A DNA stretch of 64,000 nt from Stegostoma tigrinum (taxonomy: Eukaryota). The notes under the pieces were generated by a model that ran no database searches, was not told the DNA's origin, and saw only the letters and a list, made by a program, of their open reading frames with translations. This document shows positions 1,056 to 54,008 of this stretch, piece after piece. The stretch is taken from contig NC_081361.1 of the NCBI RefSeq assembly GCF_030684315.1, positions 33,586,704 through 33,650,703 on the forward strand. The letters run 5' to 3'. The number at the start of each line of letters is the position of its first letter. The stretch's first letter is position 1. The translations under genes were made by a program, and so were the position numbers.

Positions 1056-54008
<52,953 letters not shown>

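Follow-up and report, generated by a model that had tools for sequence, protein, structure and literature searches.

A GCN2 paralogue kept across sharks and rays carries leucine at the motif-2 arginine position of a remodelled HisRS-like domain

How GCN2 is switched on is disputed: uncharged tRNA, the ribosomal P-stalk and release of an internal brake are the rival triggers. The m2 allele, the double change F1143L/R1144L in human GCN2, weakens tRNA binding and makes GCN2 respond less to halofuginone, anisomycin and ribosomes (PMC10899773, PMC6421407). A gene in a 64,000-nucleotide stretch of Stegostoma tigrinum DNA (the window, to whose positions all coordinates refer) was initially annotated as a GCN2 paralogue with Leu in place of the motif-2 Arg. 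Is it a natural m2 allele, and does it still sense what GCN2 senses?

The gene lies on the minus strand and has 23 exons, with 897 codons from a conserved Met, no stops or frameshifts, and GT-AG boundaries at all introns. The model is identical to the whale shark protein P0002 at 830/897 residues, and a likely first coding exon of 11 codons (56198-56230) matches the whale shark N-terminus. The Gly loop, beta3 Lys, alphaC Glu, insert strand and hinge are encoded by the kinase N-lobe and insert exons (40448-54014; exons 54014-53898, 47916-47613, 43076-42952, 40902-40843 and 40573-40448). An 11-residue catalytic-lobe stretch, both activation-loop Thr, the APE motif and the alphaG Thr come from the C-lobe exons (32630-35512; exons 35512-35411, 34453-34387, 33888-33782, 33079-32981 and 32707-32630). 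The end of the kinase and the junction helices occupy 29058-29303. Next come HisRS-like exons in which motif 1 is kept (24199-27910; exons 27910-27826, 24715-24594 and 24248-24199), the motif-2 exon (22217-22370), the exons for a shortened insertion domain, HisB and motif 3 (10223-18339; exons 18339-18241, 17546-17394, 13635-13516 and 10324-10223), and those for an anticodon-binding-like domain (3686-8459; exons 8459-8328 and 3760-3686), all on the minus strand. The last two exons, stop included, lie 5.3 and 9.6 kb past window position 1, and the protein ends in a basic tail of about 34 residues (net charge +11 to +12 in two of the three paralogues for which it was counted). This tail (last exon, L036) can be loosely aligned to the first, basic helix of the CTD in GCN2; it is poorly conserved (57%) and is absent in one ray isoform.

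Contig pieces covering the motif-2 exon in four public runs (two of unrecorded kind, two guessed to be RNA) end at the exon ends or at most 4 bases from them. The pieces sit in records of up to 3324 nt, and unique intron bins are empty. Such exon-bounded pieces fit spliced RNA. Among the joints listed in public runs, which came mostly from a LINE, none crossed a true intron. The introns carry LINE-like and other repeat fragments, named by eye, at window 22600-23750, 19700-20200, 45700-47100 and 63100-64000; L023 holds a longer reverse-transcriptase-like element, likewise named by eye. A Pfam scan for neighbouring genes in 147 of 240 long flanking ORFs gave no match.

Ten orthologues were collected, from eight sharks and two rays; they are annotated only as 'GCN2-like' and measure 725-916 aa. 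Identity to the nine other orthologues is 71-88%, and the mean identity among orthologues is 85% in the motif-2 exon, 84% in the kinase C-lobe, 89% in the junction helices and 57% in the kinase insert. At the level of sequence, the paralogue has been strongly conserved since the shark-ray split. An HMMER search of 1.84 billion representatives returned one cluster at 1657 bits and the next at 319 or below; hence, no intermediate member was seen in that search. No member outside sharks and rays was seen among 7999 scored candidates, and the HMMER clusters came without names. Exons are missing from the annotated isoforms P0005 and P0006: those for HisB/motif 3 in Heptranchias, and one of the insertion domain in Heterodontus.

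That the gene is a paralogue was confirmed: a full canonical GCN2 lies on a separate contig of the same genome (G000:C12), with RWD, pseudokinase, RYCIERVFRP, AGGRYD and CTD exons all present and motif 2 intact. The paralogue is only about 25% identical to canonical GCN2. Twelve of its 22 introns coincide exactly with canonical GCN2 introns in both position and phase; a further three share the phase and lie within 3 columns. A first tree of 28 rows was rejected for placement; in it the paralogue was drawn to long branches and its position was left undecided. With 12 of the 28 rows removed, the resulting 16-row tree gave the paralogue a stem of 4.65 changes per site with short branches inside and made it the sister group of GCN2 from jawed vertebrates, though the support of 88 is not firm. 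Placing it with the canonical shark gene by itself was weakly rejected (p-AU 0.038). The exact introns and the tree show that the paralogue descends from a GCN2 gene by DNA-level duplication. In an ohnologue test, MEIS, Sprouty/SPRED and thrombospondin domains were found on C12 (the canonical gene's contig), C11, C51 and other contigs, none of them on C10; these three markers give no support to a genome-duplication block as the origin. The paralogue does not carry the motif-2 Arg and the HisA and HisB catalytic motifs of an active histidyl-tRNA synthetase. Elsewhere in the genome, an exon at G000:C15:8121471-8121602 (L004) likely belongs to the true histidyl-tRNA synthetase, with motif 2 intact as KVYRR.

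What remains of GCN2 in this protein of about 900 residues is a kinase and a HisRS-like domain. The kinase is of the eIF2-alpha-kinase type, with catalytic motifs and a beta4-beta5 insert, and its best match is GCN2, at 148 bits versus 111 for PKR. The HisRS-like domain that follows matches PF13393 in 9/10 members, P0002 falling under the curated cut-off, and the top Foldseek match of the P0002 model is 8T7T (E 2.6e-24). No RWD family match was found in any of the 10 orthologues or near the locus. The pseudokinase is absent: the orthologues have only 30-50 residues ahead of the kinase Gly loop, and one isoform begins within the kinase. Nor did the CTD give a family match in the ten orthologues, and in the gene model a stop follows the short tail. 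Over the 160 kb upstream, a profile search of moderate sensitivity picked up no exon of an RWD or pseudokinase at E<0.05; the same search with a kinase+HisRS profile recovered 7 of the gene's exons at that threshold.

The Arg-to-Leu change itself is borne out. The codon at 22346-22348 is CTT, and the exon translation, read over 23 residues, places its Leu (L583 in P0002) where human GCN2 has R1144 and yeast R1120; human motif-2 numbering follows PMC6421407 and PMC10899773. Aligned with YCIERVFRP of human GCN2 (PDB 8T7T, the only PDB match), the exon sets F on F1143 and L on R1144. A ten-orthologue profile runs against human GCN2 without a gap for about 80 residues upstream up to this site, and a profile-profile alignment with hhalign gave the identical register (probability 100 for the HisRS-like domain). 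Checked for conservation as the initial annotation had asked, the Leu is present in 10/10 orthologues, within an 11-residue motif-2 stretch that is identical in all ten. Sequencing error is ruled out by this recurrence, together with coverage of the exon and an unchanged codon in 4/4 public runs. The likeness to m2 is partial: the Arg half of the pair is changed to Leu, but the aromatic half, the first m2 position (human F1143), is kept as Phe (22349-22351).

Could the Arg of the adjoining KKRF occupy the motif-2 place instead? This challenge was put to the sequence register, with alternatives scored in bits against 141 GCN2-family sequences. The plain register scored 7.4 bits, whereas five slid registers that put the KKRF Arg on 1144 were poorer, at -18.5 to 0.0. 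The sixth opens a gap of two residues immediately ahead of that Arg and comes out level with the plain register, at 7.0 bits before gap cost. Since the gapped alignment still leaves the KKRF Arg six residues past the R-Y-C anchor, the backbone place of V1142, we take Leu to be the motif-2 residue.

Other features of the exon have changed. It is 154 nt long, against 169 nt in the canonical gene, and its loop is 5 residues shorter; AG..GT bounds enclose it (22370-22217), and the Arg codon before it is split in phase 2. The KKRF Arg (22352-22354), at the V1142 position, is new: 0/141 canonical sequences have Arg there. It is a candidate stand-in, presumably on the same strand face, and may partly compensate for the Leu. 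By counting, a His (22319-22321) replaces the conserved motif-2 Glu (human E1158; Glu in 120/141). The AlphaFold model of P0002 has a hairpin at motif 2, with strands at 573-582 and 588-599 (pLDDT 89, 66 and 91 by blocks). The intron end at 22385-22371 (minus strand) reads LPFDL in another frame, resembling GCN2 residues just upstream of motif 2. As coding sequence this string was rejected: it lies in the wrong frame, comes after a stop and runs across the acceptor, and is probably there by chance.

Taken alone, the Leu says little. Of 141 GCN2-family sequences, 114 have the motif-2 Arg and 27 lack it, one of them having Leu. Because Arg is absent in so many, and because the paralogue has lost a third of its conserved sites, a Leu at this single site is unremarkable and exceeds chance only modestly. 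The GCN2 proteins P0054, P0056, P0058, P0061 and P0063 (Coemansia, Martensiomyces) have lost the motif-2 Arg (F-V-A) and the next Glu and keep GGRYD.

The pocket around the Leu has been rewritten much more broadly. For the HisRS region, 205 proteins were pooled; 185 matched the profile, 169 passed coverage and 143 remained under 80% identity. Changes are fixed in 10/10 orthologues at F1116 (L), L1118 (H), V1142 (R), R1144 (L) and E1158 (H), and in all 9/9 that have the exon at R1351 (Q), D1353 (T), A1377 (D) and D1379 (Q). Motif 1, D1117, R1124, R1136, P1153, D1162, FDI and the glycines are retained. The first two changes form L-D-H at 24597-24605, with Leu at human F1116/yeast Y1092 and His at L1118 (PMC11363354, PMC4335047). 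HisB GGRYD has become GGQYT-K (13519-13536; yeast R1325, D1327 and T1328 positions), with GGQYT in 9/9 orthologues that have the exon. An Asp (10259-10261) stands at the motif-3 Ala, human A1377 and, by counting from GGRYD, yeast A1353. In yeast, m2 is suppressed by Y1092C, T1328S and A1353V (PMC4335047). All three of these positions are changed in the paralogue, to L, K and D rather than the suppressing C, S and V; they also vary among canonical proteins. The motif-2 Arg stacks by a cation-pi contact on the yeast Y1092 equivalent (PMC11363354), and in the paralogue both partners are Leu. The insertion domain has 68-69 residues versus 106, and the net charge of the catalytic-like domain is -2 to -6 in three paralogues versus +8 to +12 in six canonical proteins. 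Joint loss of all six tallied sites, which were picked after the paralogue had been seen, occurs in 0/139 scored sequences, the maximum being five in one sequence. Strongly conserved positions are retained at 32/48 in the HisRS region and 68/97 in the kinase (the latter among 109 sequences). Since retention is alike in the two domains, a loss specific to the pocket is unsupported.

The kinase, for its part, is intact in its catalytic motifs. These do not vary in any member covering them, and neither do the two activation-loop Thr or the alphaG Thr-x-x-Glu-Arg; the repressive insert-strand motif is kept in 9/9. The acidic patch is weak, with at most 4-5 D/E per 10 residues versus 8-10 in vertebrate GCN2. 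The hinge Glu is lost, and the hinge (D-F-C-K-T-T-L; window 40573-40565) is one residue shorter than in GCN2; a GCN2 change in this region, human S808G (yeast R794G), activates the kinase and is a suppressor of m2. A conserved Arg ahead of strand beta1 (window about 53963), presumably part of the back-to-back dimer salt bridge, is Leu in 9/9 orthologues.

A two-copy model of P0002 residues 432-882 scored 0.64, the best of 3 controls 0.00, though similar dimers are already solved and the score may reflect memory. The mark for this score was reached by 21/30 solved pairs (17/29 for eukaryotes) and 0/23 single chains. At least 80% of contacts recur between model runs, and pLDDT is at least 72. 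Because like dimers are among the solved structures, we treat the model, a candidate counterpart of the domain-swapped HisRS-like homodimer of GCN2, as a likeness only.

What kind of protein does this describe? Canonical sensing of tRNA and ribosomes has probably been lost, judging from sequence. The initial annotation predicted such a loss for deacylated tRNA; this stands as probable, but it is the whole remodelled pocket, with the missing RWD, pseudokinase and CTD, that carries the case, not the Leu. Its term 'tRNA-sensing motif' proved too narrow: m2 also blocks activation by ribosomes and the P-stalk (PMC6421407), and a preprint reports that tRNA inhibits GCN2 instead of activating it (10.64898/2026.09.09.750423). 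The m2 analogy also suggests an unactivatable kinase, but the three altered suppressor positions and the absent autoinhibitory CTD point the opposite way.

The reading that leads, as a tentative and near-even call, sees the protein as an eIF2-alpha kinase that is active on a dimer scaffold, uncoupled from tRNA and ribosome sensing and not a crippled m2 mimic. The motif-2 Leu would then be one part of a retired ligand pocket, silent to uncharged tRNA or stalled ribosomes. With GCN1 docking through the RWD, the pseudokinase and the CTD brake all gone, the relay fed by motif 2 would have nothing left to release. The HisRS-like fold would be retained as a dimer scaffold, pairing two kinase domains via the junction helices. 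Phosphorylation of eIF2-alpha would be set by expression and the retained insert strand, not by starvation, and amino acid sensing would stay with the canonical gene. Published work offers support: deletion of the CTD raises basal activity of human GCN2 about 20-fold (PMC6421407), and the kinase/HisRS core has been proposed to favour the active dimer, with the other domains restraining it (PMC11606652). Several points weigh against this reading. The suppressor sites neither carry suppressing residues nor hold constant in canonical proteins; substitutions at R1325 and D1327 kill yeast Gcn2 function (PMC4335047); and a human kinase+HisRS construct, which ribosomes stimulate, needs them for stimulation and stays below wild-type activity (PMC6421407). 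The insert strand, which in a preprint represses the kinase until eIF2-alpha binds the acidic patch (10.64898/2026.09.09.750423), is kept while the relieving patch is weak, and the Arg before strand beta1 is now Leu.

The retention of D1117, R1124, R1136 and D1162 and the invariance of the new residues would fit a new ligand no less than a retired pocket. Perhaps the pocket was rebuilt as a gate for the kinase, sensing a metabolite, an osmolyte-linked signal or a protein instead of tRNA or the P-stalk? The polar newcomers H557, R581, H592, Q746, T748 and D772 are invariant across sharks and rays, the very long stem (4.65 changes per site) is followed by near stasis, and the retained insert strand implies that some trigger may be needed. 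However, the ligand remains hypothetical, and the invariance is not specific to the pocket since the entire domain is equally conserved. We consider this alternative unlikely.

It is doubtful that the KKRF Arg, lying two residues before the Leu and facing the same side of the strand, has replaced R1144 so that ribosomes or tRNA still activate the protein without GCN1. The gapped register's tie agrees with such a relocation. In the dimer model the interface includes K580 and F582, which likely leaves R581 and L583 together on the opposite face, towards the pocket; ribosomes can stimulate human kinase+HisRS alone (PMC6421407), and the tail is basic. Against these stand the Arg's backbone place, which is that of V1142, the further loss of E1158, R1351 and D1353, the net acidic domain and the shortened insertion domain.

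We give a similarly low probability to a literal m2 mimic, a kinase rarely or never activated and kept for weak activity, for scaffolding or as a decoy, or one acting on another substrate. Lesions in m2, R1325 and D1327 each destroy yeast function (PMC4335047), and the weak eIF2-alpha docking patch and the lost pre-beta1 Arg and hinge Glu fit an inert protein. Yet the catalytic motifs, activation-loop Thr and alphaG element are invariant, and the CTD, through which those lesions act (shown for the D1327 patch; PMC4335047), is missing. A decaying pseudogene or assembly error, which the 25% identity to canonical GCN2 might suggest, is very improbable given an open frame, 71-88% identity to nine orthologues and exon-bounded contig pieces in public runs.

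The main result is hence the gene that the Leu marks, more than the residue, which by itself would be a modest finding. Through this paralogue, sharks and rays retain a naturally occurring kinase+HisRS core whose disputed pocket is rewritten. For such a core one published model predicts persistent activity and m2 genetics predicts a dead protein. It also adds a candidate to the vertebrate eIF2-alpha kinases, usually counted as four. On a bolder but unlikely reading, sharks and rays would have an additional, undescribed branch of the integrated stress response, descended from an ancient GCN2 duplicate of jawed vertebrates that bony vertebrates have lost; it would have shed GCN1 docking and the C-terminal brake and rebuilt its pocket for a new signal. 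We found no paper on a shark or ray GCN2 paralogue in the open-licence literature, and the searched passages of two eIF2-alpha kinase surveys (PMC5025754, PMC5851622) do not mention it.

Among known systems, GCN2/EIF2AK4 (human PDB 8T7T; fungal 9BF3, 9F58, 9C9Q) has the same order of kinase, junction helices and HisRS-like catalytic and anticodon-binding domains, and has introns in common with the paralogue. The paralogue differs in lacking RWD, pseudokinase and CTD, in its changed motif-2 Arg, E1158 and HisB Arg and Asp, in its shorter motif-2 loop and insertion domain, and in a net-acidic sensing domain. With the gcn2-m2 allele (yeast Y1119L/R1120L, human F1143L/R1144L) it shares Arg-to-Leu at one position; unlike m2, it keeps the aromatic, its change is natural and fixed, all three m2-suppressor positions are altered, and the CTD is gone. 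The engineered kinase+HisRS core (construct K, PMC6421407; core model, PMC11606652) has the paralogue's two-domain architecture but a wild-type pocket, which the paralogue has remodelled. GCN2 proteins of Coemansia and Martensiomyces (F-V-A) and of a wasp (Y-H-E) also lack the motif-2 Arg; unlike the paralogue, they keep GGRYD and are near full length, most with RWD. PKR-sis (PMC11305385) is likewise an extra eIF2-alpha kinase restricted to cartilaginous fishes. It is sister to PKR, has its kinase at residues 260-537 and is described as a kinase only, whereas the paralogue is derived from GCN2 and joins an N-terminal kinase to a HisRS-like domain.
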